NCBI GenBank assembly: GCA_020726405.1
Contig: DYSB01000003.1
Span: 1 to 54,066, forward strand
DNA length: 54,066 bases
Reading direction: 5' to 3'
Source of the DNA: Acetofilamentum sp.
Lineage (GTDB): Bacteria > CAIWAD01
Every line of letters starts with the position of its first letter. The first letter of the stretch is position 1. The notes under the pieces are model-generated. The model saw only the letters and a program-made list of their open reading frames with translations, was not told the DNA's origin and searched no databases. Positions 2,188 to 16,818 of this stretch are shown piece by piece. The translations under genes were made by a program, and so were the position numbers.

Positions 2188-4566
2188 ATGTCCAAGCTTT
2201 CCCTTCTCTTCATTCTGCTGTTGACCGGCGCCACCGCCGCACCCGCCGCGCTGGAGCCGCCCGCGCACCCGCTGTTCACCGGGGACGCCGTCCACGAGAT
2301 CCAGCTGGACTTCCCCCAGCCCGACTGGTGGGAGCAGCTCACCTTCAATTTCGAGACCTACGAGGATCCGCCGGATATCCCGGCCACGTTTAGCTGGAAC
2401 GGCACGGTGCTGGATTCCGTGGGCGTGCGGTTCAAGGGCAACAGCAGCTACTGGAGCTACTACGGGCCGAAGAAGTCCTTCAAGCTGGATCTGAATTCCT
2501 TCCTCTCCGGACAAGAGCTGGCCGGCCTGGACAAGCTGAGCCTCAACAACTGCTTCCTGGACCCCAGCTATCTGCGGGAGAAGTGCGCCTATGAAGTGTG
2601 TGCCGCCGCAGGCCTGCCGACGGGGCGGAGCAATTTCGCCGCCCTCTATCTCAACGGGCAGTACTGGGGCCTCTACTTGCTGGTGGAGCAGGTGGACCAG
2701 GAGTTCATCGAGAGCCGCTTCGGCGCAGGCGAGGCGGGCAATCTGTGGAAGGGCGACCCCCACGGCACGCTGGAGTTCCAGGGGACGGATCCCGCCGCCT
2801 ATCAAGACGACTACGAGTTGAAGACCAACGAGGAAGAGAACGACTGGTCGGCGCTGGTGGATTTCACGGCGGCCTTGGGCAGCACGCCGACGGCAGCGCT
2901 GCGGGACAGCCTGCACAACCGCGTGGACATCAGCTCCGCCCTGGCCATGCTGGCCGTGGACAACCTGCTGGTCAACCTGGACTCCTACCTGGGCAGCGGG
3001 CACAACTTCTACCTGTATCACCGCGACCTGGACAGCCGGATGGTCTTCATTCCCTGGGACTTGAACGAGGCCTGGGGCGTCTTCAACATGGGGCTTGGTC
3101 TCACGCAGCTGCGGCAACTGAATCCACACTGGCTGCCCGGCGGCCAGCCGCGACCGCTGGCGGCGCGGCCCTGGCAGTTGTCGGAACTGGACCAGGTCTA
3201 TCTGGGCCATCTGCGCCGGTTGATGGCCGGCCCGGCTCAGCCGGACACGCTGCTGGCCCGCATGGAGGCCTTGCACGAGCTGGTCCGGCCCTGGGCCCTG
3301 GCGGACACGAACACCATGTTCACGAACGCCCAGTTTGAGGCTTCGCTGGAATCCGACCTCAACGCCCCGGGTGGTCCGCCACCGGGCCGGCTGATACCCG
3401 GCCTGCGCTCCTTCATCACGAGGCGGGACAGTTGGCTGCGCCAGCAGATCGGCTCCTGGAGCCCCATCGGCCAACTGGTGCTGAACGAGGTTCTGGCTGA
3501 CAACGGCGGCACGCTGGCGGACGAGGCCGGCGACTTCGACGACTGGATCGAGGTGCTCAACGCGGGCCCGACGCCGCTGCATCTGGCGGGCCTGCAGCTC
3601 ACGGACCACTGGGAGGGCGAGGCGGATTTCAGCTTCCCGGACCTTCTGCTGGAGCCGGGCGAACGCGTGCTGGTGTGGGCCGACGAGGAGCCCGGCGAGG
3701 GGCTGCTCCACGCACCCTTCAAGCTGGACGCCGATGGCGAAGGGCTCTATCTAGTGCAGGACGGATCCATCCTGCAGCAGGTGGACTGGCCCGCCGTGGG
3801 CGAGGATCAGGCCTGGGGGCGCTGGCCGGACGGCACGGGCGCCTGGACCCGACTGAGCGTGGCCACTCCTGAGGCGGAGAACCAGAACCCCAGCGGCGGC
3901 ACTGACCCTGTGTTGGTCCTGAACGAATTTCTCGCTTCCAACGACGGCGGGCTGCCGGACGAGACCGGCACGCCCGAGGACTGGCTGGAGTTGTTCAATC
4001 CAGGTTCGGCGGCCGTGGAGCTGGGCGGGCTGTATCTGACGGACGATCTGACCCGCCCCACCCAATGGGTCCTGCCCGACACCAGCCTGGCTGCCGGCGG
4101 TTTCCTGCTGGTGTGGTGCGACGACGATCCCCAGGACGGCCCGTTGCACGCCACGTTCAAGCTCAGCGCCGGCGGGGAGGAGATCGGACTGTTCGGGCGG
4201 CTGGAAGCCGGCAACCACGCCCTGGACACCCACGAGTTCGGGCCGCAGCTGACAGACCAGAGCGAAGGCCGGCTGCCGGATGGCATGGGTGCCTGGTCGG
4301 CGCTCTTCGTCCCCAGCCCGGGCGCGCCCAACCTCTCCGCTGTGACGGATCTGGCCATCGACTATGCCTCTGCCACGGGCCAAGTCACACTGGGTTGGAG
4401 TACCGTGCCCGGTGCGCTCACCTATGCCGTGCTGGCGACGGAGGACCTGACGGCGCCCTTCCCGGAGGGTTGGACCCGCCTGGCGGAGGGCCTGTCGGAG
4501 CCCGGCTGGAGCGGTCCGGCCGGGTCGGGGCGGCGCCTCTACCGGGTGGTGGCCGTCACGCCCTGA
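2188..4566 (+). CDS. Secreted CotH kinase family protein with two lamin-tail domains
   Basis: Signal peptide; VGVRFKGNSS, KKSFKLD, GLYLLVEQVD, HNFYLY, IPWDLNEAW; two LNE..A.N....DE.G...DW.E..N repeats. Confidence 0.85.
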   Translation: MSKLSLLFILLLTGATAAPAALEPPAHPLFTGDAVHEIQLDFPQPDWWEQLTFNFETYEDPPDIPATFSWNGTVLDSVGVRFKGNSSYWSYYGPKKSFKLDLNSFLSGQELAGLDKLSLNNCFLDPSYLREKCAYEVCAAAGLPTGRSNFAALYLNGQYWGLYLLVEQVDQEFIESRFGAGEAGNLWKGDPHGTLEFQGTDPAAYQDDYELKTNEEENDWSALVDFTAALGSTPTAALRDSLHNRVDISSALAMLAVDNLLVNLDSYLGSGHNFYLYHRDLDSRMVFIPWDLNEAWGVFNMGLGLTQLRQLNPHWLPGGQPRPLAARPWQLSELDQVYLGHLRRLMAGPAQPDTLLARMEALHELVRPWALADTNTMFTNAQFEASLESDLNAPGGPPPGRLIPGLRSFITRRDSWLRQQIGSWSPIGQLVLNEVLADNGGTLADEAGDFDDWIEVLNAGPTPLHLAGLQLTDHWEGEADFSFPDLLLEPGERVLVWADEEPGEGLLHAPFKLDADGEGLYLVQDGSILQQVDWPAVGEDQAWGRWPDGTGAWTRLSVATPEAENQNPSGGTDPVLVLNEFLASNDGGLPDETGTPEDWLELFNPGSAAVELGGLYLTDDLTRPTQWVLPDTSLAAGGFLLVWCDDDPQDGPLHATFKLSAGGEEIGLFGRLEAGNHALDTHEFGPQLTDQSEGRLPDGMGAWSALFVPSPGAPNLSAVTDLAIDYASATGQVTLGWSTVPGALTYAVLATEDLTAPFPEGWTRLAEGLSEPGWSGPAGSGRRLYRVVAVTP

Positions 4567-4659
4567 GCTGGCGGCGCGCTTTGTAGATTGACTCCCGAAG
4601 CGGGTCCCGCGCGAAGTGGGGCCCGCACGGAGCGCGGTCCCACAGACGGGAGACGGATC

Positions 4660-6519
4660 ATGACCGAGCTGTTGCAACGCAACGAGATATTCCAGGTGCT
4701 CACACCCGAGGAAGCCGTGCTGCTGGCCGGCCTGCTGAAGGAGGAGCGCCTGCACGCTGGCGACGTGGTCTTCCGGCAGGGTGAGAAGCGCCGGCGCCTG
4801 ATTCTGGTGCAGAGCGGGGCCATCCGGGTGAGCGAGCGCACGCCCCGGGGCGAGCAGGTGCTGGTCACGTACCACGCCGGCCATTTCCTTGGCGAGGCGG
4901 CGCTGCTGGACGACACGCCGCACAGCACCACGGCGACGGCCGCGCTGGATTCGGTGCTGCTCACGCTGGAGCGCGGGCGCTTCCAGAAGTTCCTGGAGGA
5001 GCATCCGCAGTTGGCCGCCCGGGTGCTGGGGCAGGTGGCCCGCGTGGTGTTCGGGCGGATGAAGCTCGGGCTGGCTGCGGCGGGCGGAGCCGCCCAGTAC
5101 CGCACCGGTGCCGTGCGCGTGGAGCACGACCTGTTGGGGGACCGCGAGGTGCCGCGCGACGTGTATTACGGCGTGCAGACCCTGCGGGCGCTGGAGAATT
5201 TCGACATCACGGGGATTCCCCTGCACCATTTCCCTTTCTTCATCAAGGCGCTGGCCATGGTGAAGAAGGCCGCGGCCCAGGCCAACACGAGGCTGGGCCT
5301 GCTGCCGGAGGACCTCTCCACTGCAATCCAGCAGGCCTGCGACGAGATCATCGACGGCCAGCTCCACAACCAGTTCGTGGTGGACATGGTGCAGGGCGGG
5401 GCGGGCACCAGCACCAACATGAATGCCAACGAGGTGATCGCCAACCGCGCGCTGGAACTGCTGGGCGAGGAGATGGGCTGTCACACGCGCCTGCATCCCA
5501 ACGACCACGTCAACCTCTCCCAGAGCACCAACGACGCCTATCCCACCGCCATCCACCTGGCCATGCTGCTCAGCGTGCGGCCCCTGGTCTCGGAGATGGA
5601 GGAACTGGTGGAGGCCCTGCGGGTCAAGGCGCGGGAGTTCTCGCGGGTCATCAAGATGGGCCGCACCCAGCTCCAGGATGCCGTGCCCATGACCCTGGGC
5701 CAGGAATTCGCCGCCTGGGCCCAGTCCGTGGAAGAGGACATCGACCGCCTGAAGGAGAACGCCCTGCTCTTCCTGGAAGTGAATCTGGGCGGCACGGCCA
5801 TCGGCACGGGCATCTGCGCCGACCCCTCCTATCCGCGCGAGGCCATCAAGGCCTTGCGCCGGGTCTCGGGCTTCGAGTTCATCCTGGCCAAGGATCTGGT
5901 GGAGGCCTCCAGCGACACGGGCAGCCTGCTGATCTTCAGCGGCATCCTGAAGCGCGTGGCCGTCAAGACCAGCAAGATCTGCAACGACCTGCGCCTGCTC
6001 TCCAGCGGCCCGCGCTGCGGCTTCGGGGAGATCAACCTGCCGGCGCGCCAGCCGGGCAGCAGCATCATGCCCGGCAAGGTCAACCCGGTGATCCCCGAGG
6101 TGATGAACCAGGTGGCCTTCCAGGTCATCGGCAATGACCTGACGGTGACCATGGCCGCCGAGGCGGGCCAGCTGGAGCTGAACGTGATGGAGCCGGTCAT
6201 CGTGTTCAACCTGTTCCAGAGCATGAGCATGCTCGAACGGGGTTTCCGCACGCTACGCCGCTTCTGCGTGGAAGGGATCACGGCCAACGAGGAGCGCTGC
6301 CGCAGTCTGGTGGACAGTTCCATCGGGATCGTCACGGCCTTGCTCCCCTGGATCGGCTACACGGCGGCCACCACGGTAGCGCGGCGGGCGCTGGAGTCGG
6401 GCATTCCGGTGCGCGACATCGTGCTGGAGATGGGTCTGCTCTCCCCGGCGGAGCTGGAGGACGTGCTGCAGCCCGAGCGCATGGTGGCCCCGGTGCGGCT
6501 CTCGGCTGATCGCGGCTGA
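4660..6519 (+). CDS. aspA: Aspartate ammonia-lyase with N-terminal cyclic-nucleotide-binding domain
   Basis: N-terminal VFRQGE...GHFLGEAALLDDTPHSTTATA; then YYGVQTLRA, QGGAGTSTNMNANEV, KMGRTQLQDA, GSSIMPGKVNP. Confidence 0.9.
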   Translation: MTELLQRNEIFQVLTPEEAVLLAGLLKEERLHAGDVVFRQGEKRRRLILVQSGAIRVSERTPRGEQVLVTYHAGHFLGEAALLDDTPHSTTATAALDSVLLTLERGRFQKFLEEHPQLAARVLGQVARVVFGRMKLGLAAAGGAAQYRTGAVRVEHDLLGDREVPRDVYYGVQTLRALENFDITGIPLHHFPFFIKALAMVKKAAAQANTRLGLLPEDLSTAIQQACDEIIDGQLHNQFVVDMVQGGAGTSTNMNANEVIANRALELLGEEMGCHTRLHPNDHVNLSQSTNDAYPTAIHLAMLLSVRPLVSEMEELVEALRVKAREFSRVIKMGRTQLQDAVPMTLGQEFAAWAQSVEEDIDRLKENALLFLEVNLGGTAIGTGICADPSYPREAIKALRRVSGFEFILAKDLVEASSDTGSLLIFSGILKRVAVKTSKICNDLRLLSSGPRCGFGEINLPARQPGSSIMPGKVNPVIPEVMNQVAFQVIGNDLTVTMAAEAGQLELNVMEPVIVFNLFQSMSMLERGFRTLRRFCVEGITANEERCRSLVDSSIGIVTALLPWIGYTAATTVARRALESGIPVRDIVLEMGLLSPAELEDVLQPERMVAPVRLSADRG

Positions 6520-8251: not shown

Positions 8252-8989
8252 TCAGGGGGCGAGGTCGCCCAGGAAGGCGGGGCCGCCCAGTTGGGACATC
8301 TGGCCCTGGATCCAGGCGCTGCGCTCCTGCATGTAGGGTCCCGGGCGTGCCGCCGAGTACCGGCGCGGCGAGGGCAACACGGCGGCCAGCCGCGCAGCCT
8401 GTGAGCGGGTAACGCGATCGGGACGGGTGCGCAGCAGGTGGCGCGAGGCCGCGCCCACACCGTAGACGCCGTCGCCGAACTGGGCGATGTTGAGATAGAC
8501 CTCCAGGATCCGCCGTTTGGGCCAGGTCACTTCCAGCAGCACGGTGATCCCGGCCTCCAGCCCCTTGCGCAGCCAATTGCGTCCCGGCCAGAGGAAGAGA
8601 TTCTTGGCCACCTGCTGGCTCAGCGTGCTAGCCCCGCGGATCCGGCGGCTGCGTCCGTTGTGTTGCAGGGCCTTGCCGATGGACTCCAGATCAAAACCCC
8701 AGTGGTCGGGGAAGCGTTGATCCTCGGCGGCGATCACGGCCAGGGGCAGCTGGGCTGACATGTCATCCAGGTCCACCCACTGGTAACGCAGCGGCGGGGC
8801 GTCCTCCCGGAACAGGCCCTCCACCCGGCGCTGGAGCATGACGGAGCTGGTGGGCGGCGGGGCCCAGCGCAGCACCAGCACGAGCAGCAGCAACAGGGCC
8901 GTCAGGGCGCCCAGCACGTAGAGAGTCCGGCGCAGCCAGAGCCGCGCCCAGGCCAGCCGTCCGCCGGCCGGCTTCCGCTCTTGTCTCAC
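8252..8989 (-). CDS. mtgA: Monofunctional biosynthetic peptidoglycan transglycosylase
   Basis: AAEDQRFPDHWGFD, RGASTLSQQVAKNLFLW, RKGLEA, KRRILEVYLN; GTG start overlaps the upstream stop. Confidence 0.92.
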   Translation of the reverse strand: MRQERKPAGGRLAWARLWLRRTLYVLGALTALLLLLVLVLRWAPPPTSSVMLQRRVEGLFREDAPPLRYQWVDLDDMSAQLPLAVIAAEDQRFPDHWGFDLESIGKALQHNGRSRRIRGASTLSQQVAKNLFLWPGRNWLRKGLEAGITVLLEVTWPKRRILEVYLNIAQFGDGVYGVGAASRHLLRTRPDRVTRSQAARLAAVLPSPRRYSAARPGPYMQERSAWIQGQMSQLGGPAFLGDLAP

Positions 8990-11900
8990 GCCATCCCCAG
9001 GAAATCGTAGCTGGTTTTCTTGCGCAGGTTCCCCAGCAGCGTGAAGAAACGTTTGAGCATGGCCTCCTCGGGCGCGCTCCATTCCTGGGGCGTGATCAGG
9101 TTCGACGGGTCGCGGCTTTCCAGCACGGCTGCCGTCTGCCGGGAGAGGCGTAGCCGCAGGATATCCTCGTAGTCCTGCGTCAACTCTCCGTGGCTCTCTT
9201 GGCTCAGACCGCCCAGTTCGTGCAGGCGGGCCAACCGGTCCAGCGTGTGGGTCTCATCGAGACCGTGCTTGAGTGCGTAGAGGCGCCCCGTGTTGACCAC
9301 GGGCAGCAGGGCCTCCTTCAGGTCCAGCGCCCGGACCCCCGCCGGCGTGGACGAACTGAGCAGCAGGTTGCCCCGCAGGCCCAGTGCCGGCTTGCTCAAT
9401 AGCGTGTTCTGAGCCAGGTGCAACAGGAAGGGCGGGTGCTGGCGGATCTCGTCCAGCACGAAGCCGCGCAGTTCGTGGGCCAGGGCGGGATCGCCGCCCA
9501 CGGCGCGGAAGTCGAAGGCGATGTTTAAGTCGAGCAATTCCTGGGGGCCGGCCTCGCGGATCCAGCGCGAGAAGCGCGCGCGCCAGTCCGCGGCGGACTG
9601 GTTCCAGCGCGCCTGGGAGGCCATCACGCCACCCGTGCATTCACGGTAACCGGCCGTGGCCAGGCCGGCGCAGACGCGGCGGCCCAGTTCGAGGAAGTAG
9701 GCCGTGCAGGCCTCGCGCTCCTCGGCGGGCGGGTCCTCGTAGAGCAGGCCGTTGTCCTGGTCGGTGAGCAGCGTCTGCTCCTGGCGGCCCTCGCTGCCCA
9801 TGGCCAGGAAGACAAAGCGCGCCGGCGGCGGGCCCATCTGCTCCACGGCCAGGGCCAGCAGGCGCTGCAGCGCGCCGTCCGCCACGCTGCTGATCAGGCG
9901 GTTGATTGCCCGCATGCGTGTGCCGGAGACCAGCAGGGCCTGGACCAGCCGCGGCAGGCGGCCCACGGCCTCGGCCAGTTCCCCGGCGTTGGCGGCCTGG
10001 CCCAGGGAGTGGGTCAGGATCACGGCGCTGTAGTGGCGGAAGTGCACGAGGTTGCGGTCCCGCAGCACGCCCGCCAGCCGGCCCGCGTCATCCAGGGCCA
10101 CCAGGTGGCCGATGTGCCGGTTCTGCATCTGCAGGATGGCCTCGTAGACCAGGGCGTGGACGGAGATGGTGGCCAGTGGCGCGCTCATGATCTCGCGCAC
10201 GGGCCGCGAGGCCTCCAGCCGTCCGGCGGTGACCCGGGCCCGGAAATCGCGGTCGGTCACCAGGCCGATGGGCTCGCCCTGCTCCGTCACCACCACCAGG
10301 GCGCTGGAGTCCGCCAGACTCATGCACTGGGCGGCCTCGGCGATGGAATGCCCCGGGGTGAGCGCGGGCACGGGCCGCACGGCGGGCGTGACAGGCTCCT
10401 GCAGGTAGAACAGCGAACTCTGCAGTTGGCCAATGAGCTCCTCGCGCCGGGCCTCCTCGCGCACTTGTTCGCTCATGTCCTCGAGCACGCCATCGCAAAC
10501 CGTCCGGCCCTCCTCGCGCACCAGCACGGCGAAGAGCCGCACCTCGGCGCGCGAACCATCGGCGCGGCGCAGGGCCAGCCGCGGCCACTCTGCGCTCTCC
10601 TCGCGCTCCAGGCGTTCCACCAGCTCGCGCCGGACCGGCTCCTCGGCCACGTGCTCGAGCCAGTCCACCCCGTCCACGGCGACCTCGGGCTCCAGACCCA
10701 GCAGGCGGCGCATGGCTGGATTGGCATCCAGCAGGAAGGCGCCGTCCTGCCAGGAGCTGCGGAAGACACCCATCCGGATGGAGCGCGTGAGCTTGCGGTA
10801 GTGCCCGCGGCTGCGCCGCAGCGCGGCGGTGAGTTCCTTGTGGCGGCCGATGTCCCGGGCCACCAGGATGAAGCCGCGCCGGCCCTCGAAAGCGATGGGC
10901 GAGGCAGAGAGCAGGACCTCGGCGTATCCCCCGTCCGGCCGTTTAAGCCGCGCCTCGCCGCCCGGCGGGACGGCGCCGCCGTGCAGCAGGGCCTCCAGCC
11001 ACTCCAGAGCGCGCCGATCGGCCGGACGGTCGTCGGCGAACAGATCCCGCACGTGCCGGCCGGCCAGCTCGCCCACGCCCGCGCCGCAGAGCAGCTCCAT
11101 GGGCCGGTTGGCGTAGGCACAGTCCCCGTCCAGCACCATCAGCGTGCCCTCGCTGCCGGCCTCCGCCAGGGAGCGGTACTTCTCGCGGCTGCTCTTGAGT
11201 TCGCGCTCGGCCCGTGCCCGGCGTGTCTCCAGGGCCAGGCTCTGGCGCATCACATAGAGCAGCAGCAGGCCCACCAAGGCGGCGATGAGCAGCGTGATCC
11301 AGACCAGCCGGCCGCGGACCCGGGCCATCTCGGCCTGGACGTCCTGGGTGTAGATGCCTGTGCCGATCACCCAGCCCCAGGGCCGGAAGGCCTGCACGTA
11401 GGAGAGCTTGGGGACGATCTGGCCCGGGTTGTCTTTCCACTGCCAGTCGTATTCCACATAGCCGGCGTCGCGCTCGCGCACCGCCTCCACGAACTCCACG
11501 AACACGCGTCGGCCGTGGGGGTCGCGGAATTCCGAGACGTCGCGACCGTTCAGGTCCGTGCGCCAGGGGTGCATGATCATCACGGGACGCAGGTCGGTGA
11601 TCCAGAAGTAATCCTTGCCCTCCGGACCGTAACGCAACCGCTCGATGCGGCCGGCAGCCTCCCGGCGGGCGCGCTCCGGCGCCAGATGTCCGCTGGCCGC
11701 TTCGTCCGCGTACTCCTGCAGGATGCTGGCCGCTGTGCGCGTCAGTTCGCGGATGGTCTCCTTTTTCCGCTCCAGCAGCTGGGCTTCCATCATGGGGATG
11801 AAGACGCCGAAGATGGCCAGCAGGAAGAGCACGCCGGCCAGCGCCACGGGCAACCCGATGTGGAGTAGGAAGCCGCGCCAGTTGCGCTCGCCACCCAGGG

Positions 11901-12654
11901 ACTTCCGGCCCCGACCCACGCGCAGGAAGTCGCGGCCCGCCCAGCCCAGCACGCGTGCCAGGGGCAGCCAGGCTTCCTCGGGTAGCTCCAGGCCGGGAGC
12001 GGGGGCGCCCAGGCCACTGCCCGGGCCGTGGTAGTCGCTGCCGCCGCTCACCAGCAGGTCGTGCTGCGCGGCCAGCCCGGCCAAGGCCGCGCGGGTCGCC
12101 TCGTCATAGCTGAGATAGTGGGCCTCCAACCCGTCCAGGCCGCGGGCTTTCCAGTCGGGCAGTCGGGCCGCCAGCTCCTCCAGTCCGGCCAGCCCGGCCA
12201 GCGGATGGGCGGCGAAGGTCAGGCCGCCGGCCTCGTGCACAAGGCGGCAGACGGTCTCCAGAGGCAGCGCGCCTTGACCGGGTCCCAGGGCGACGGCGCC
12301 CGGCTGCCGGCCGCCGCGCAGGGCTCCGGCCACCTGGGCCACGTGCGGATGCCGATTGGAATCCAGGGCCTGCAGCAGGGCCGGGTTGCGCTCGTTGAAG
12401 TGGTAGGCCAGCACGTGCAGGGTGCCCTCGGGGGTCAGGGCGTCGATCTCCGCGCCGCTGACCACGTGGATGCCGCGCGGCTCCAGGGTGCCGCGGAAGC
12501 GCTCCAGTCCGGCGACGGTGTTGTGGTCGGTAAGGGCCGCGTAGCGCACGCCGGCGTCCGCCAATTCCTCCGCCAGCTGCTCGGGCGAGAGCACGCCATC
12601 ACTGAAGGAACTGTGGCAGTGCAGGTCGATACGCCAGGCGCGCGCCGGACTCAT
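8986..12654 (-). CDS. Multidomain membrane sensor-enzyme: PHP - TM - sCache_2 - TM - PAS - PAS - CBS pair - DUF294 nucleotidyltransferase - DUF294_C
   Basis: PHP: DLHCHSSFSDG, TDHNT, GAEI, AAHP, GGSDYHG; Cache: YFWI..MHP..DPHG..VEY.W..KLSYV..PWGWVIGTGIY; PAS: YANRPM, DANPAM; CBS: IGLVTDRDFR..IMSAP; NTase: MGSEGRQEQTLLTDQDN; DLKEALLPVV..RLYAL. Confidence 0.85.
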   Translation of the reverse strand: MSPARAWRIDLHCHSSFSDGVLSPEQLAEELADAGVRYAALTDHNTVAGLERFRGTLEPRGIHVVSGAEIDALTPEGTLHVLAYHFNERNPALLQALDSNRHPHVAQVAGALRGGRQPGAVALGPGQGALPLETVCRLVHEAGGLTFAAHPLAGLAGLEELAARLPDWKARGLDGLEAHYLSYDEATRAALAGLAAQHDLLVSGGSDYHGPGSGLGAPAPGLELPEEAWLPLARVLGWAGRDFLRVGRGRKSLGGERNWRGFLLHIGLPVALAGVLFLLAIFGVFIPMMEAQLLERKKETIRELTRTAASILQEYADEAASGHLAPERARREAAGRIERLRYGPEGKDYFWITDLRPVMIMHPWRTDLNGRDVSEFRDPHGRRVFVEFVEAVRERDAGYVEYDWQWKDNPGQIVPKLSYVQAFRPWGWVIGTGIYTQDVQAEMARVRGRLVWITLLIAALVGLLLLYVMRQSLALETRRARAERELKSSREKYRSLAEAGSEGTLMVLDGDCAYANRPMELLCGAGVGELAGRHVRDLFADDRPADRRALEWLEALLHGGAVPPGGEARLKRPDGGYAEVLLSASPIAFEGRRGFILVARDIGRHKELTAALRRSRGHYRKLTRSIRMGVFRSSWQDGAFLLDANPAMRRLLGLEPEVAVDGVDWLEHVAEEPVRRELVERLEREESAEWPRLALRRADGSRAEVRLFAVLVREEGRTVCDGVLEDMSEQVREEARREELIGQLQSSLFYLQEPVTPAVRPVPALTPGHSIAEAAQCMSLADSSALVVVTEQGEPIGLVTDRDFRARVTAGRLEASRPVREIMSAPLATISVHALVYEAILQMQNRHIGHLVALDDAGRLAGVLRDRNLVHFRHYSAVILTHSLGQAANAGELAEAVGRLPRLVQALLVSGTRMRAINRLISSVADGALQRLLALAVEQMGPPPARFVFLAMGSEGRQEQTLLTDQDNGLLYEDPPAEEREACTAYFLELGRRVCAGLATAGYRECTGGVMASQARWNQSAADWRARFSRWIREAGPQELLDLNIAFDFRAVGGDPALAHELRGFVLDEIRQHPPFLLHLAQNTLLSKPALGLRGNLLLSSSTPAGVRALDLKEALLPVVNTGRLYALKHGLDETHTLDRLARLHELGGLSQESHGELTQDYEDILRLRLSRQTAAVLESRDPSNLITPQEWSAPEEAMLKRFFTLLGNLRKKTSYDFLGMA

Positions 12655-12775
12655 GCGGAATCCTCCCGGGTGAGTGCAGGGTCAACTTCGGAAACGAAGG
12701 GCTCTCCTAGCCCGCAAAGGGCCGGCGCAGGTCCCTGACCGCGCCGGCCCCCACGATGTCACACGGATGATTCGA

Positions 12776-14683
12776 CTAGTGCTCCACCCCCGTCGTGGTG
12801 CGCGTGGTCAGCAGCGAGACCATGATCAGGGCCAGGAAACTCAGCGGGATGGAGATCACGCCGGGGTTGTCCAGCGGGAAGGGGGCCGTGGACGGGTCCA
12901 GTCCGTATTTCTCATACAAACTGGGGGAGAAGAGGATCAAGCCCACCGAACTGAGGATGCCCACCGTGATGCCCGCCGTGATGCCCTTGGCCGTTGTTCG
13001 TTTCCAGAACAGCATCATCAGGATGGCCGGCAGGTTGGCGCTGGCCGCCACGGCGAAGGCCAGACCCACCAGGAAGGAGACGTTCATGCCCTTGAACAGG
13101 ATGCCCAGCACGATGGCCAGGATGCCCACGGCGAAGGCGGCCACCTTGCCGGCGTGGACCTTCTGCGCCTCGTTCATGTTGCGGCCCGCGTAGCGGTCCA
13201 TCAGGTCGTGGGCCACGGCGCCGGAGGCGGCGATGATCAGCCCGCTCACGGTGCCCAGCACGGTGGAGAAGGCGATGGCCGAGATGACCGCGAAGAGCAG
13301 TTCGCCGAAGGAGCGCGCCAGGAGCGGCGCCGACATGTTGTTGTCCAGTGGATTCACCACGCCGCTGGTCATGGCGCCCAGGCCCATGTAGAGCGTGAGC
13401 ACGTAGAAGGCGCCGATGGCCGCGATGGCCACGATGGTGGACTTGCGTGCCGAGGTGGGGCTGGGCACCGTGTAGTAGCGGATGAGGATGTGGGGCAGCG
13501 CGGCGGTGCCGAAAAAGAGGGCCAGCATCAGCGAGATGAAGTCCAGCTTCTCCAGCGGCGTGCCTTCCACTTTGAACTTGAGACCAGGACGCATCACGCG
13601 GTTGCCCGGGGTTTCCTGGGGGTAGATCACCTTGACCTTGGCGCCGTCTTCCGCCGTGAAGGAGACATCCTTCCAGCGGCGCACCACGGTCTCCTTGTCC
13701 GACATCAGCGAGAGATACTCGAGGGGTCCCGCCGGGCCCGACAGGGCCGCATCGCCCGTGCGGCCGGCCACGCGGACCAGATTGCCCACTTGGCGAAACT
13801 TGTTCTCCGGCGAGGCGGGCGCGCCGTTGATCACATGCGTGCCGTCCGCGCTCTTGGCCTCCCACTGGGCCTGGGTCAGTGTCACACGGCCGTCATCCCC
13901 TTCCTCCACGTGCCACCAGCCCTCGCCGGCGGGACCGGCGAGGCGCACGAAGCGCGCCTGCTTCACCGCGGCGTTCTCCAGCACGGCGAAGGTGCTGTCC
14001 AGGGGCAGCACCGCGTCGCCGGCCAGCGTGGCCTGCAGCACGGCGGGCTCCACGAAGGGGACCTTGCCGCCCTGATCCGGGGCCGGGTTGAAGCCGCGCA
14101 CCAGCACGGCGATCACCAGCGCCAGGGAGAAGATCACCAGCAGGGCGCCCTTGATGAACTGCACGTAGGTGGTGGAGGTCATGCCGGCGGTGGCCACGAT
14201 GGTGATCACGATGGCGCCGACCATGATCACGCCCCAGGCGTGGGGGATGCCCAGCAGGGGTTCCACCAGCACGCCGGCGCCCACCATTTGCGGGATCAGG
14301 TAGAAGATCGAGACGATGAGCGTGCTGATGGCCGCGGCCAGCTTGATCCCGCGGGAGTCGAACTTGGCGTCCAGCGCATCGGTGAACGTGTACTTGCCCA
14401 GTCGCTTCATGGGCTCGGCTACGATGAACAGCGCCACGATCCAGCCGGCCAGGTAGCCGATGGAATAGAGGAAGCCGTCGTAGCCGGCGGTGGCGATCAT
14501 GCCGCAGATGCCCAGGAAGGAGGCGGCGCTGAGGTAGTCGCCGGCGAAGGCGATGCCGTTCACCGACCAGTGGATGGTGCCGCCGGCCGCGTAGTAGGCG
14601 CTGGCCGAGGTCGTGCGACGGGCCAGCCAGAACGAGAGCCCCAGCACGCTGGCCACAAAGAAGAGGAAGACCGTGATCGCCAT
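12776..14683 (-). CDS. actP: Cation/acetate (monocarboxylate) symporter, SSS family, with large loop insertion
   Basis: NGIAFAGDYLSAASFLGI, YLIPQMVGAG, GMTSTTYVQFIKG, GTAALPHILIRYYTVP, AFAVAASANLP. Confidence 0.85.
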   Translation of the reverse strand: MAITVFLFFVASVLGLSFWLARRTTSASAYYAAGGTIHWSVNGIAFAGDYLSAASFLGICGMIATAGYDGFLYSIGYLAGWIVALFIVAEPMKRLGKYTFTDALDAKFDSRGIKLAAAISTLIVSIFYLIPQMVGAGVLVEPLLGIPHAWGVIMVGAIVITIVATAGMTSTTYVQFIKGALLVIFSLALVIAVLVRGFNPAPDQGGKVPFVEPAVLQATLAGDAVLPLDSTFAVLENAAVKQARFVRLAGPAGEGWWHVEEGDDGRVTLTQAQWEAKSADGTHVINGAPASPENKFRQVGNLVRVAGRTGDAALSGPAGPLEYLSLMSDKETVVRRWKDVSFTAEDGAKVKVIYPQETPGNRVMRPGLKFKVEGTPLEKLDFISLMLALFFGTAALPHILIRYYTVPSPTSARKSTIVAIAAIGAFYVLTLYMGLGAMTSGVVNPLDNNMSAPLLARSFGELLFAVISAIAFSTVLGTVSGLIIAASGAVAHDLMDRYAGRNMNEAQKVHAGKVAAFAVGILAIVLGILFKGMNVSFLVGLAFAVAASANLPAILMMLFWKRTTAKGITAGITVGILSSVGLILFSPSLYEKYGLDPSTAPFPLDNPGVISIPLSFLALIMVSLLTTRTTTGVEH

Positions 14684-14967
14684 CAGTTCCTCCCCTCTTT
14701 GGACGCCAGCAGCCGCTCGCGCACGGAGCAGATCCGGTCATAGATCAGCGCCAGCACCAGGGCCACCAGGATCAGGCCCATGCCGTAGACCACCGCCAGA
14801 TTGAGTCCGGCGAAGACCGTGCGCTCCATGGCCAGGGGATCGGCGATGTTGATGGCCACGAACCCGATGTAGATCAGGGCGTAGACGGCGAACATCCAGA
14901 CGCCCAGTCGGGCTTTGAAGGCGGAGCTTGGGTCTTTGCCCGTGGGGGCAGCGGGTTTGTGCAGCAT
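14683..14967 (-). CDS. DUF485 (YjcH-like) small membrane partner of ActP
   Basis: Two TM helices, GLNLAVVYGMGLI; stop overlaps the actP start; AGGAGG RBS. Confidence 0.85.
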   Translation of the reverse strand: MLHKPAAPTGKDPSSAFKARLGVWMFAVYALIYIGFVAINIADPLAMERTVFAGLNLAVVYGMGLILVALVLALIYDRICSVRERLLASKEGRN

Positions 14968-15195: not shown

Positions 15196-16062
15196 CTATG
15201 CCTCGGGCGGCGCGGGAGGCAACTTGGCCAGCCAACGCCGGCGGCGCCATTCACGGATTGCGTCCAGCCACTGATCGGCCTTCAGGTGGAAGGCCGGCAC
15301 CACCAGCAGGCTGAGCGCCGTGGAGACCGCCAGGCCCGTCAGGATGCCGATGGCCATGGGCGAGCGGATCTCCGAGCCCGGACCCAGTTCCAGGGCGGAA
15401 GGCAGCGCGGCCATCATGGTGGCCGTGCTCGTCATCAGGATGGGCCGCAGACGCTTGGGACCGGCCTCCAGCAGGGCATCCCGGGCCGCCAGTCCGCGCG
15501 CCTGGGCCTGACGCGCGTAGTCCACCAGGATGATGGAGTTCTTCTTGACGATGCCCAGCAGCAGCAGGCCGATCATCGAGAAGATGTTCAGGCTCTTGCC
15601 CGCCAGCCAAAGTCCGCCCGCCGCGCCCGCCACGGAGAGCGGCAGGATGGTGAGCACGGTGATGGGACGCAGCAGGGAGTTGAACTGGGAGGCCAGCACC
15701 ATGTAGGCCACGGCGATGCCCAGGAAGAGCGTCATCAGCAGGCTGCCCATGGATTCCTTGACGGCCACGCTGGCTCCGCCCAGCACCAGCCGGTGCCCGC
15801 CGGGCAGATCACGGCCCATCTCCTCCACCGCGGCCAGCACCTCCTGCTGGGCGTGGCCGGGCGCCACGTTGGCCGTGATGGTGATGGCGCGTTCGCGATC
15901 CCGGCGGGTGATGGCCTGGAGGGCGGGGCGTTCCTCGGTGACCACCACGCTGGAGAGTGGCACCAGTTCGCCGGCCGCCGTGCGAACCCGCAGGCGCATC
16001 AGGTCCTCGGGGCGCGAGCGCTGGCTCGCCAGCAGGCGCATGCGCACGTCCAGGTGCCGGCC
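15196..16062 (-). pseudogene. C-terminal fragment of an AcrB/RND efflux permease
   Basis: ITRRDRER, YMVLASQFNS, IFSMIGLLLLGIVKKNSIILVD, RLRPILMTS; most of the ~1000-aa protein is missing. Confidence 0.85.
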
Positions 16063-16712
16063 ACGTCCTCAACGGGAATACCCAGATCGGCGCAGCGTGC
16101 CCGGTCCGGCATGACACGCAATTCGGGCATGCCCACCTGGTAGTCCGTGTCCACGTCCACGGCCAGGCCGCTGGCCTGCACCCACTCGCGCTCGGTGCTG
16201 GCCAGTTCCAGCTCGGCGCGGGTCAGGTCGTTGCTGCCCACCAGACCGGCCTCGCGCCGCACCTGGATCTCCGTCAAAGAGCGGATAGCCAGCTCCCGGC
16301 GTTCCACGGCGGCCCAGCTGTCATGTCGCGCCTGGCCCACCAGCGGCAGCGCCTGGGCGTCGAAGAGCAGCTGGCTGGCGCCTGCCCGGGCCTCCCAGCC
16401 CTCGTAGCTGGAACTGCCCGAGGCGCCGCCCTCGCTGGCGTATTCGCTGCGGTCCAGGTCCAGCCTGAGGCTGGGCAGCAGAACGGACCAGGCCTGGCCC
16501 ACCCGCGCGGAAGCGGCCTGGCGCCCGGCCCGGGCGATGGCCGCGCGTTCATGATGCTCCAGGGCGGCCTGGATGGCCTGCTCCAGGCTGAGGGACGTCG
16601 CGGCCTGCGCCGGCAGGGCGGCGGCCAGCCCGAGTGTGAGAAAAAGCCCCACGCGGGGCCAACAGGAGCGGAAGGGCTCGGAGCGCCTGGCTCGGTCGGG
16701 TCTGGTTGTCAT
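16063..16712 (-). pseudogene. Truncated TolC-family outer-membrane factor fused by deletion to an AcrB fragment
   Basis: LSLEQAIQAALEH, LLPSLRL, QLLFD, DLTRAELELA, then an abrupt switch to AcrB-like VDVDTDYQVGMPELRVMPDRAR. Confidence 0.75.
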
Positions 16713-16818
16713 GGATGGTCCCGGAATACTCTCGACAGGGCTAGGTAGCACCGCGAATGCAGGGCACCTGCGGCAAGCCTGGCGGGAAGGCGGGATGTGA
16801 ATTCTTGAGCACCCGGGC

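Follow-up and report, generated by a model that had tools for sequence, protein, structure and literature searches.

A predicted transmembrane sensor that joins a PHP phosphoesterase and a DUF294 nucleotidyltransferase beside an ActP-like symporter

The classical COG2905/DUF294 proteins, exemplified by PP_0354 of Pseudomonas putida and PA3233 of P. aeruginosa, are soluble and built in the order cNMP-binding, CBS, CBS, DUF294 and DUF294_C (cNMP, cyclic nucleotide), and each is accompanied by an adjacent gene for an RNase T-like 3'-5' exonuclease (PP_0353 and PA3232). In pseudomonads few genes of the acetate/short-chain fatty acid regulon are induced more strongly than these, and in many bacteria they adjoin monocarboxylate symporters (10.1101/072470; 10.64898/2026.09.07.749794; PMC9927547; papers named here by identifier are cited from excerpts of their text). 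In September 2026 the function of the DUF294-exonuclease pair was still called unknown (10.64898/2026.09.07.749794). This article deals with a relative of these proteins found in a stretch of 54,066 nucleotides (nt) from Acetofilamentum sp. (GTDB lineage Bacteria; CAIWAD01; assembly GCA_020726405.1, contig DYSB01000003.1, positions 1 to 54,066 of the forward strand), referred to below as the window. The gene in question, at 8986..12654 on the minus strand, encodes a predicted membrane protein of 1222 amino acids (aa), here called the sensor, which carries a PHP phosphoesterase at one end and a DUF294 nucleotidyltransferase (NTase) at the other; judged by its sequence, it classes as a variant of the uncharacterised DUF294 systems. 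We tentatively read it as a signal-switched nucleotidyl writer/eraser that would throttle monocarboxylate uptake, probably through protein nucleotidylylation, and hold this reading to be a real prospect, if a little less than an even one.

How, then, does this locus compare with the classical ones? It shares with them the core of CBS pair, DUF294 and DUF294_C, the pairing with a metal-dependent hydrolase, the linkage to SSF symporters with a small membrane subunit (DUF485 or DUF4212), and the tie to acetate, propionate or pyruvate metabolism. It differs in its input, where a transmembrane (TM) sCache_2 domain and two PAS domains take the place of the cNMP-binding domain (the sensor has no cNMP_binding match in Pfam at E <= 0.1), and in its hydrolase, a PHP domain within the same polypeptide rather than a separate DEDDh gene. 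No paper describing the PHP fusion, or the calcineurin-like (Metallophos) partner discussed below, was found in the open-access literature, taken without subscription journals or supplements. The domain order is PHP, TM helix, sCache_2, TM helix, two PAS domains, CBS pair, DUF294 and DUF294_C, with the following features:

8986..12654, minus strand: sensor gene P0001, 1222 aa (open reading frame, Pfam, homologues)
11950..12633, minus strand: PHP domain of the TrpH/YciV (RNase AM) type, predicted cytoplasmic, residues ~8-235, nine metal ligands (sequence, AlphaFold2 (AF2) model, Foldseek)
11791..11871, minus strand: TM helix 1, residues ~262-288 (hydropathy)
11320..11781, minus strand: sCache_2 domain, predicted extracytoplasmic, residues 292-445, with a putative C2/C3 carboxylate pocket of the PscD type (Pfam, alignment)
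11251..11310, minus strand: TM helix 2, residues ~449-468 (hydropathy)
10849..11181, minus strand: PAS domain 1, residues 492-602 (Pfam)
10450..10800, minus strand: PAS domain 2, residues ~619-735 (PAS_8 match over 619-674 only; C-terminal limit estimated)
10039..10371, minus strand: CBS pair, residues ~762-872 (Pfam, structure matches)
9544..9960, minus strand: DUF294 NTase of the pol-beta type, residues 899-1037 (Pfam, alignments, model)
9001..9432, minus strand: DUF294_C helical "substrate-binding" domain, residues 1075-1218 (Pfam, model, PMC3710099)

The whole sensor is encoded by a single uninterrupted frame from ATG to stop, with a Shine-Dalgarno sequence (GGGAGGA) 7 nt upstream of the ATG and an even GC content of 0.68-0.72 throughout. 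Pfam gives 43 bits for PHP (residues 10-75), 123 bits for sCache_2 (295-445), 65 bits for the two CBS domains, 159 bits for DUF294 (PF03445; cut-off 21) and 99 bits for DUF294_C (PF10335; cut-off 22.5), while the same scan at E <= 0.1 returns no kinase, GGDEF or HTH in the sensor protein. Hydropathy reveals exactly two hydrophobic segments (260-295 and 446-475), with K/R-rich flanks before the first and after the second, and the PHP domain and the PAS-to-NTase part are therefore placed in the cytoplasm, and the Cache domain outside. An initial annotation, made from the letters of the window alone, had already described one uninterrupted 1222-aa frame, two TM helices around an sCache_2 domain, two PAS domains (found here as PAS and PAS_8) with a CBS pair, and no kinase, GGDEF or HTH output; this layout stands in full.

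The fusion is not peculiar to this genome. In a collection of 5.8 billion proteins, 889 relatives were recognized among 8000 scored candidates; 77 of the best 120, which were listed, are 1100-1280 aa long and have a precomputed PHP match together with Cache, PAS, CBS and DUF294, PAS being missing from some PHP-bearing homologues of ~1100 aa. The remaining 43 of the 120, mostly ~970-1060 aa, have no precomputed PHP match. Forty-one of the listed proteins were aligned, 33 of them with the N-terminal region. A scan of gene loci, with one genome per species, yielded at least 597, of which the most similar 80 were retained, so that the sample is biased towards close relatives; together with the window locus these make 81 loci, 41 PHP-positive and 40 PHP-less. 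PHP and sensor share one open frame in 37 of the 41 PHP-positive loci, from about ten phyla (Actinomycetota, Chloroflexota, Armatimonadota, Planctomycetota, Spirochaetota, Gemmatimonadota, Sumerlaeota, NC10, Lentisphaerota and Aminicenantes). One further locus (L070) has a frame break near the 3' end of its PHP-sensor gene, and three Actinomycetota loci (L004, L006, L007) encode PHP as a protein of its own (255 aa), from a gene directly upstream of that for the sensor. A PHP gene separate in all homologues, which for the initial annotation would have meant chance fusion or misassembly, is not what is seen; PHP is separate in these three loci of 41, and even there adjacent. Such a pattern, fused in most lineages and side by side in others, is classically taken to show functional coupling. 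The source genome is fragmented (281 contigs), which might suggest an assembly artefact or a chance fusion confined to this metagenome-type genome, but the same full-length architecture, at 39-75% identity, occurs in independent assemblies of many phyla, and the GC content is even along the gene. Conserved across phyla, the fusion is therefore neither misassembly nor chance, and that explanation is ruled out as having practically no likelihood. The architecture is already in public databases, and the sequence itself is not new: homologues are filed there under names such as "PAS domain S-box protein," "cache domain-containing protein" and [quoted passage not shown]

The PHP domain finds its closest described relatives among the TrpH/YciV phosphoesterases, which provide the best sequence and fold matches to residues 1-250: RNase AM (7ug9, 9etk), the Cv1693-type 3',5'-nucleoside bisphosphate phosphatase (2yb1) and BAD_1165 (3e0f). 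Its AF2 model (mean predicted local distance difference test score, pLDDT, 91.1) has RNase AM 7ug9 as best Foldseek match (E 4.6e-17; target-normalized TM-score, TMt, 0.81), with 9etk, 3e0f and 2yb1, the last with AMP and phosphate bound, among the further matches; sequence searches agree with the fold, the TrpH/YciV clade being nearest at ~25% identity. All nine ligands of the trinuclear metal site are present (H12, H14, D19, H44, E69, H80, H150, D207 and H209), in the layout H12-x-H14...D19-G20, T42-D43-H44, E69, H80, H150 and S206-D207-x-H209, and they are kept in 32-33 of the 33 aligned homologues with an N-terminal region, which are 39-75% identical to the query. The full metal site claimed at first sight is thus confirmed motif by motif. 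What sets the domain apart is its fusion to a membrane sensor and its NCBIfam scores, 105 bits against a cut-off of 400 for NF041577 and 78.6 against 375 for NF047791, which miss the equivalog level; it is therefore a divergent member of the clade and the orthologue of neither known enzyme. Its best NCBIfam match is the adenosine 3',5'-bisphosphate (pAp) phosphatase model.

Might such a domain do something other than erase the product of the NTase? It could clear a by-product (pyrophosphate (PPi), pAp or nanoRNA), serve as a separate signal-regulated output, or be mainly a structural module. DNA polymerases, which appear among the structural matches of the PHP model, do have accessory PHP domains, and these have been proposed to clear PPi; scores so far under the equivalog cut-offs would also be in keeping with a different role. 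A purely structural one is however argued against by the nine conserved metal ligands, and PPi is not hydrolysed by DEDDh enzymes. Above all, the mutually exclusive replacement of PHP by Metallophos or DEDDh proteins, to which we now turn, is hard to explain unless hydrolase activity is required with the NTase, and we regard any such non-eraser role as very improbable.

As the initial annotation had stated, the usual companion of a DUF294 protein is a DEDDh exonuclease: annotated plasmids of Hymenobacter, Vibrio pelagius and Paracoccus have a soluble DUF294 gene beside a 3'-5' exonuclease gene, the Paracoccus pair lying within an acs-DUF4212-SSF-DUF294 cluster. On plasmids of Skermanella and Paracoccus (L084, 6410-6991; L086, 6370-6867), a 165-193-aa "hypothetical protein" directly follows DUF294, at the position held by the exonuclease elsewhere. 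The expectation that PHP-fused loci would do without the DEDDh gene is borne out: no RNase_T domain was found in 145 + 6 neighbour open reading frames (ORFs) at the 40 other PHP-positive loci, within ~4.5 kb, and no DEDDh partner among the sensor's neighbours in the window. The same scans returned a single Metallophos protein (L072), which is not adjacent to its sensor and bears no relation to the partner family, together with a FEN-type 5'-3' exonuclease (L009). The source genome has a single DUF294 gene, the sensor itself (164 bits with the DUF294 model), and its only RNase_T (DEDDh) domains are in two ~880-aa frames on contigs C225 and C237.

A different hydrolase accompanies the PHP-less sensors. 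A calcineurin-like phosphoesterase (Metallophos) of ~250 aa adjoins 29 of the 40 PHP-less sensors and none of the 41 PHP-positive ones, as counted with a hidden Markov model (HMM) from 28 sequences, a count that is circular for its 28 source loci. Scanned individually, the upstream same-strand ORFs of ~250 aa at PHP-less sensors were all Metallophos (17/17), as were five of the eight downstream ones, the other three being Crp-like regulators; the motifs DxH, GD, GNH, H and GHxH are kept in 27-28 of the 28 partner sequences. A Myxococcales metagenome-assembled genome (L013, 7563-13000) has two DUF294 genes in tandem, a soluble cNMP-CBS-DUF294 and a PHP-less Cache-PAS-CBS-DUF294 sensor, the latter directly preceded by a DEDDh-like ORF and followed by DUF485-ActP; a weak DEDDh HMM of three sequences matched this locus only. 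At L027 a GAF-HD protein, with a c-di-GMP phosphodiesterase model as its best match, lies directly upstream of the sensor, a weak observation. Two other eraser types are no more than candidates on thin evidence: AP_endonuc_2 TIM-barrel genes (L022, L023, L024; downstream, opposite strand), whose best NCBIfam match, CbiR phosphodiesterase, is well under the cut-off, and the HD/HD_assoc gene of L050.

A quick tree from 50 rows, covering the CBS-DUF294 region, groups the window protein with Actinomycetota (support 87) and gathers the PHP-less sensors in one clade (SH-aLRT 98) nested among the PHP forms, so that the partner was exchanged within a single sensor lineage. A PHP domain and a neighbouring phosphoesterase that exclude each other are what would be predicted if PHP replaces the exonuclease. 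There is direct precedent for this equivalence, since the PHP-type RNase AM can stand in for the DEDDh enzyme Orn, both being diribonucleases (PMC11528712). The hydrolase partner is therefore kept but exchanged between unrelated folds, and its exchange within one sensor lineage is an argument that the NTase needs a hydrolase activity at its side, whichever fold supplies it. The writer-eraser interpretation offered by the initial annotation is thereby supported in part, PHP in the place of the exonuclease being the element with good comparative support.

At the other end of the sensor, the NTase motif G953-S954-x10-D965-Q966-D967 (nt 9754-9798) is as intact as first reported. G953, S954, D965, Q966, D967 and D1048 are invariant in all 41 aligned sequences; across 50 sequences, PHP-less and soluble forms among them, G953, S954, D965, D967 and D1048 are each conserved to 90% or more, if not invariant. 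In the AF2 model covering residues 751-1222 (pLDDT 91.8), the first part matches CBS pairs, while the NTase and helical part is nearest in Foldseek to both halves of GlnE (1v4a, 3k7d; for 1v4a E 1.2e-8, TMq 0.51, TMt 0.56) and to DrrA with Rab8a (6yx5_B), all of which are protein AMPylases. DUF294_C has also been grouped with the C-terminal domains of GlnD and GlnE (PMC3710099). The likeness to GlnE, GlnD and DrrA (SidM of Legionella) thus extends over the predicted NTase and helical fold and the G-x11-D-x-D motif. GlnD further unites a writer NTase, an HD eraser and ligand-sensing domains in one chain, as the sensor is predicted to unite its own. The sensor differs from these enzymes in that its candidate eraser is a PHP domain, not an HD or a second NTase domain, and in being membrane-bound.

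On the input side, the Cache domain aligns with acetate-bound Adeh_3718 (4k08) and with PscD (5g4y) at E ~1e-37. PscD binds glycolate, acetate, propionate and pyruvate via Y90, W92, H103, F126, Y143, W145 and K156 (PMC5062169). In a HMMER alignment all seven of its propionate contacts are identical in the sensor (Y349, W351, H362, F385, Y402, W404 and K416), and these pocket residues are invariant in 41 of 41 aligned sequences, as are those by which the domain had first been recognized (M361-H362-P363, Y402 and K416). A C2/C3 carboxylate as Cache ligand is a strong inference from these seven identical and family-wide contacts, and the carboxylate reading proposed for the domain from the outset is strengthened accordingly. 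With the sCache_2 chemoreceptors PscD (5g4y/5g4z), Adeh_3718 (4k08) and McpP the sensor, known from sequence, shares the ligand-contact residues and a periplasmic domain between two TM helices; its output, however, is a predicted enzyme pair in place of the signalling domain of a methyl-accepting chemotaxis protein. Inside the cell, the modelled CBS pair matches many CBS-pair structures (TMt 0.76-0.85), indicating a Bateman fold, with AcuB structures among the Foldseek matches. The Bacillus acuABC system, in which an AcuB-type CBS module sensing energy charge is linked to the control of acetate assimilation (PMC13121692), is comparable in that link, whereas its output is lysine acetylation of AcsA and only the generic CBS fold is held in common.

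What the carboxylate signal might control is suggested by the genes next to the sensor, which is the third of a minus-strand unit that begins with DUF485 and an ActP-like SSF symporter:

14683..14967, minus strand: DUF485 (YjcH-like) small membrane protein, 94 aa, first gene of the unit
12776..14683, minus strand: ActP-like sodium:solute symporter, 635 aa, directly upstream of the sensor
12699..12750, minus strand: two GC-rich hairpins in the actP-sensor spacer (minimum free energy -40.2 kcal/mol, z -2.9)

Of the 41 PHP-positive loci, 32 have an ActP of at least 40% identity, the figure being 22 for the 26 PHP-positive loci flanked by 4 kb or more on each side and 23 for the 40 PHP-less loci. 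The symporter gene precedes the sensor gene on the same strand, at a distance of 68-1490 nt, in 24 of the 41 PHP-positive loci, and in Aminicenantes-type loci it is divergently transcribed. The 121-nt spacer between actP and the sensor gene contains a GC-rich stem of ~15 pairs followed by UUUG, then a second hairpin of 5 bp followed by a U-rich run. From their sequence, these hairpins might act as an internal attenuator or partial terminator, keeping expression of the sensor below that of the transporter.

In the reading that we favour, the sensor would be a one-component transmembrane receptor-enzyme, functionally part of the DUF485-ActP monocarboxylate uptake unit. The outward sCache_2 domain would read a C2/C3 carboxylate (acetate, propionate, pyruvate or glycolate), the PAS domains and CBS pair would add internal signals, probably adenine-nucleotide status, and together these inputs would decide which of two opposed catalytic domains, both on the cytoplasmic side, prevails. 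The writer, the C-terminal DUF294 with its GlnE/DrrA-like fold, would attach a nucleoside monophosphate (NMP) by a phosphodiester bond, and the eraser, the N-terminal PHP phosphoesterase, would hydrolyse that bond. The favoured substrate would be ActP, its DUF485 subunit, or another uptake or activation protein encoded elsewhere, and in the favoured polarity the mark would turn uptake off and the eraser turn it back on, much as GlnE acts on glutamine synthetase or GlnD/GlnK gates AmtB. That writer and eraser share one adduct, that a protein carries it, and the target, the NTP, the direction of regulation and the ligands are all inferred.

Protein nucleotidylylation is favoured because the nearest structures are all AMPylases, because only ActP and DUF485 are conserved nearby, and because the genetics of P. 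putida fit. In that organism loss of the exonuclease gene pp_0353 impairs growth on pyruvate, as does loss of actP-I, while for deletion of the DUF294 gene pp_0354 the excerpted text reports no defect on acetate or succinate (PMC9927547). By analogy, this would fit a writer that inhibits and an eraser that relieves. Cofitness of a DUF294 system with the adjacent DUF4212/SSF symporter has also been described, for a gene termed "RNase T domain protein," a name ambiguous within the pair (Price et al., 10.1101/072470).

The pair could also act on RNA ends. The NTase would then add untemplated nucleotides to actP mRNA, a small RNA or a tRNA, and the nuclease would trim them, thereby setting transporter expression. 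RNase T-like DEDDh and RNase AM-like PHP enzymes, both RNA exonucleases, are indeed among the partners, and the spacer between actP and the sensor gene is structured. COG2905 has been speculated to be necessary for expression of the adjacent symporter (Price et al., 10.1101/072470), and mRNA degradation was the speculation of the P. putida authors (PMC9927547). The predicted fold is however nearer to GlnE and DrrA than to poly(A) or CCA-adding enzymes, and YfcE-like Metallophos, HD-GYP-like and TIM-barrel partners are atypical as RNases. Moreover, RNase AM works 5'-to-3' and DEDDh enzymes 3'-to-5', that is from opposite RNA ends, so that they would not trim the same one. Bacterial 3' tails usually promote decay, and loss of the nuclease should therefore raise transporter function, which is the opposite of the P. 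putida phenotype (PMC9927547). On balance we consider RNA end remodelling improbable.

Protein nucleotidylylation by an ActP-linked writer and eraser has its own difficulties, and a number of observations count against it. The likeness of the NTase to protein AMPylases is one of predicted fold only (TM ~0.5, identity 12-15%), and P0001 has no match to Pfam GlnE (PF03710) or GlnD_UR_UTase (PF08335) at E <= 0.1, one homologue (P0069) having a precomputed PF03710 entry. The sensor NTase is for these reasons likened to GlnE and DrrA and not placed among them; at most, going by the model, it works like them. The relationship of DUF294 to GlnD and GlnE asserted in the initial annotation therefore holds for the predicted fold (1v4a, 3k7d) and fails for membership of the two Pfam families. 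On the biochemical activity of any DUF294 protein, the open-access literature defined above offered speculation only. Six of the 40 PHP-less loci (three with full flanks, three short) have no candidate partner hydrolase, ActP is absent from four of the 26 PHP-positive loci with full flanks, and, ActP/DUF485 apart, the loci examined have no conserved neighbour that is a candidate target. The phenotypes seen in P. putida are mild and were obtained with a soluble protein only distantly related to the sensor (PMC9927547), and a later preprint gives only moderate effects for both genes (10.64898/2026.09.07.749794).

The chemistry of the hydrolases raises a further difficulty. In the PHP clade, the enzymes characterised so far cleave 3'-phosphoesters of 5'-nucleotides and of short RNAs, and DEDDh enzymes are nucleases; an oligonucleotide or nucleotide substrate is therefore no less natural for this set of partners than a protein-NMP adduct. 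Since RNase AM is a diribonuclease, the common substrate may likewise be a small nucleotide or an oligonucleotide in place of a protein adduct. Would the pair then turn over a second messenger? DUF294 would in that case make a free nucleotide signal (a linear or cyclic di- or oligonucleotide, or an unusual nucleotide) that PHP, Metallophos, DEDDh or HD-GYP enzymes degrade and that controls the transporter or its expression, by a logic like that of GGDEF-EAL or RelA/SpoT. Each partner hydrolase family has members that degrade small nucleotides, the activity shared by RNase AM and Orn (PMC11528712) being a case in point, and the pAp phosphatase model is the best NCBIfam match of the PHP domain. 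The c-di-GMP phosphodiesterase-like GAF-HD protein upstream of the L027 sensor, Crp-type cNMP-binding regulators near the sensor (8/81 loci) and the cNMP-binding domain of the classical proteins can be cited to the same effect. That HD gene is a single case, however; the structures nearest to the NTase model are all AMPylases, with no cyclase or CD-NTase ranked higher; the replacement of the classical cNMP-binding domain by Cache-PAS suggests that cNMP is an input and not a product; and no dedicated receptor gene is conserved across loci. Second-messenger turnover is accordingly a somewhat unlikely explanation in our view.

Whichever product is made, the fused form brings writer, candidate eraser and a sensor of predictable ligand together in one polypeptide and offers a directly testable model of the post-translational or nucleotide-based throttling of acetate uptake, while the comparison of loci shows a metal-dependent phosphoesterase to be a required part of the system, its fold being interchangeable. 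Were writer/eraser control of uptake true, it would add a new type of output to bacterial one-component signalling and explain a long-standing puzzle of acetate physiology. In its most specific form, this would be a new class of receptor gating a solute transporter by reversible nucleotidylylation, where Cache (acetate) and CBS (adenylate) switch DUF294/PHP on ActP/DUF485. It would then supply the carboxylate counterpart of the GlnD-GlnK-AmtB circuit, with an eraser slot that evolution has filled with no fewer than three unrelated phosphoesterase folds (DEDDh, PHP and calcineurin-like), and assign a function to the whole DUF294/COG2905 family; so precise a version we think unlikely.

Some details of the transporter genes deserve mention. 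The ActP-like symporter has a hydrophilic insert of ~190 residues (~197-385) after its sixth hydrophobic segment, and in tblastn matches to the SSF genes (515 aa) of Ignavibacteria-type loci its residues from roughly 200 to 357 are passed over. SSF symporters have an N-out topology; the insert is on that basis probably extracytoplasmic and was set aside as a target of modification. In three Actinomycetota loci (L002, 6744-7799; L004, 6713-7768; L007, 6720-7775, minus strand) a 351-aa SatP/YaaH (GPR1/FUN34) acetate channel with a C-terminal RsbRD_N-like extension is encoded between ActP and PHP. The Crp-type regulators (cNMP_binding and HTH_Crp_2) lie a few kb from the sensor (L046, L047, L048, L051, L059, L060, L004 and L006). 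A cluster of ~420-aa proteins without significant Pfam match occurs beside PHP-less sensors or their ActP genes in 16 loci (for instance L033, 6675-7940; L036, 6641-7912; L037, 5862-7163; L028, 13001-14218); its L022 and L062 members match a DcaP porin model weakly, under the cut-off, and the family may be an outer-membrane carboxylate channel.

In the window itself, an unusual regulatory fusion lies on the other strand, 2.4 kb from the sensor: a 643-aa ORF (4588-6519, plus strand) that combines an N-terminal cyclic-nucleotide-binding domain with a class II fumarase/aspartase (Lyase_1 and FumaraseC_C). Just upstream of DUF485, a 283-aa ORF (15196-16047, minus strand) matches the last quarter of AcrB only (profile positions 761-1018 of 1021) and is overlapped by a 250-aa ORF with a partial OEP match (15999-16751, minus strand), the two having the appearance of remnants of an RND efflux operon. 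On the other side of the sensor, a 276-aa monofunctional transglycosylase (Transgly; 8252-9082, minus strand) overlaps its 3' end by 97 nt if read from the first ATG, and the true start may be later. Farther off, a 792-aa protein with CotH kinase and lamin-tail domains is encoded at 2188-4566 on the plus strand.

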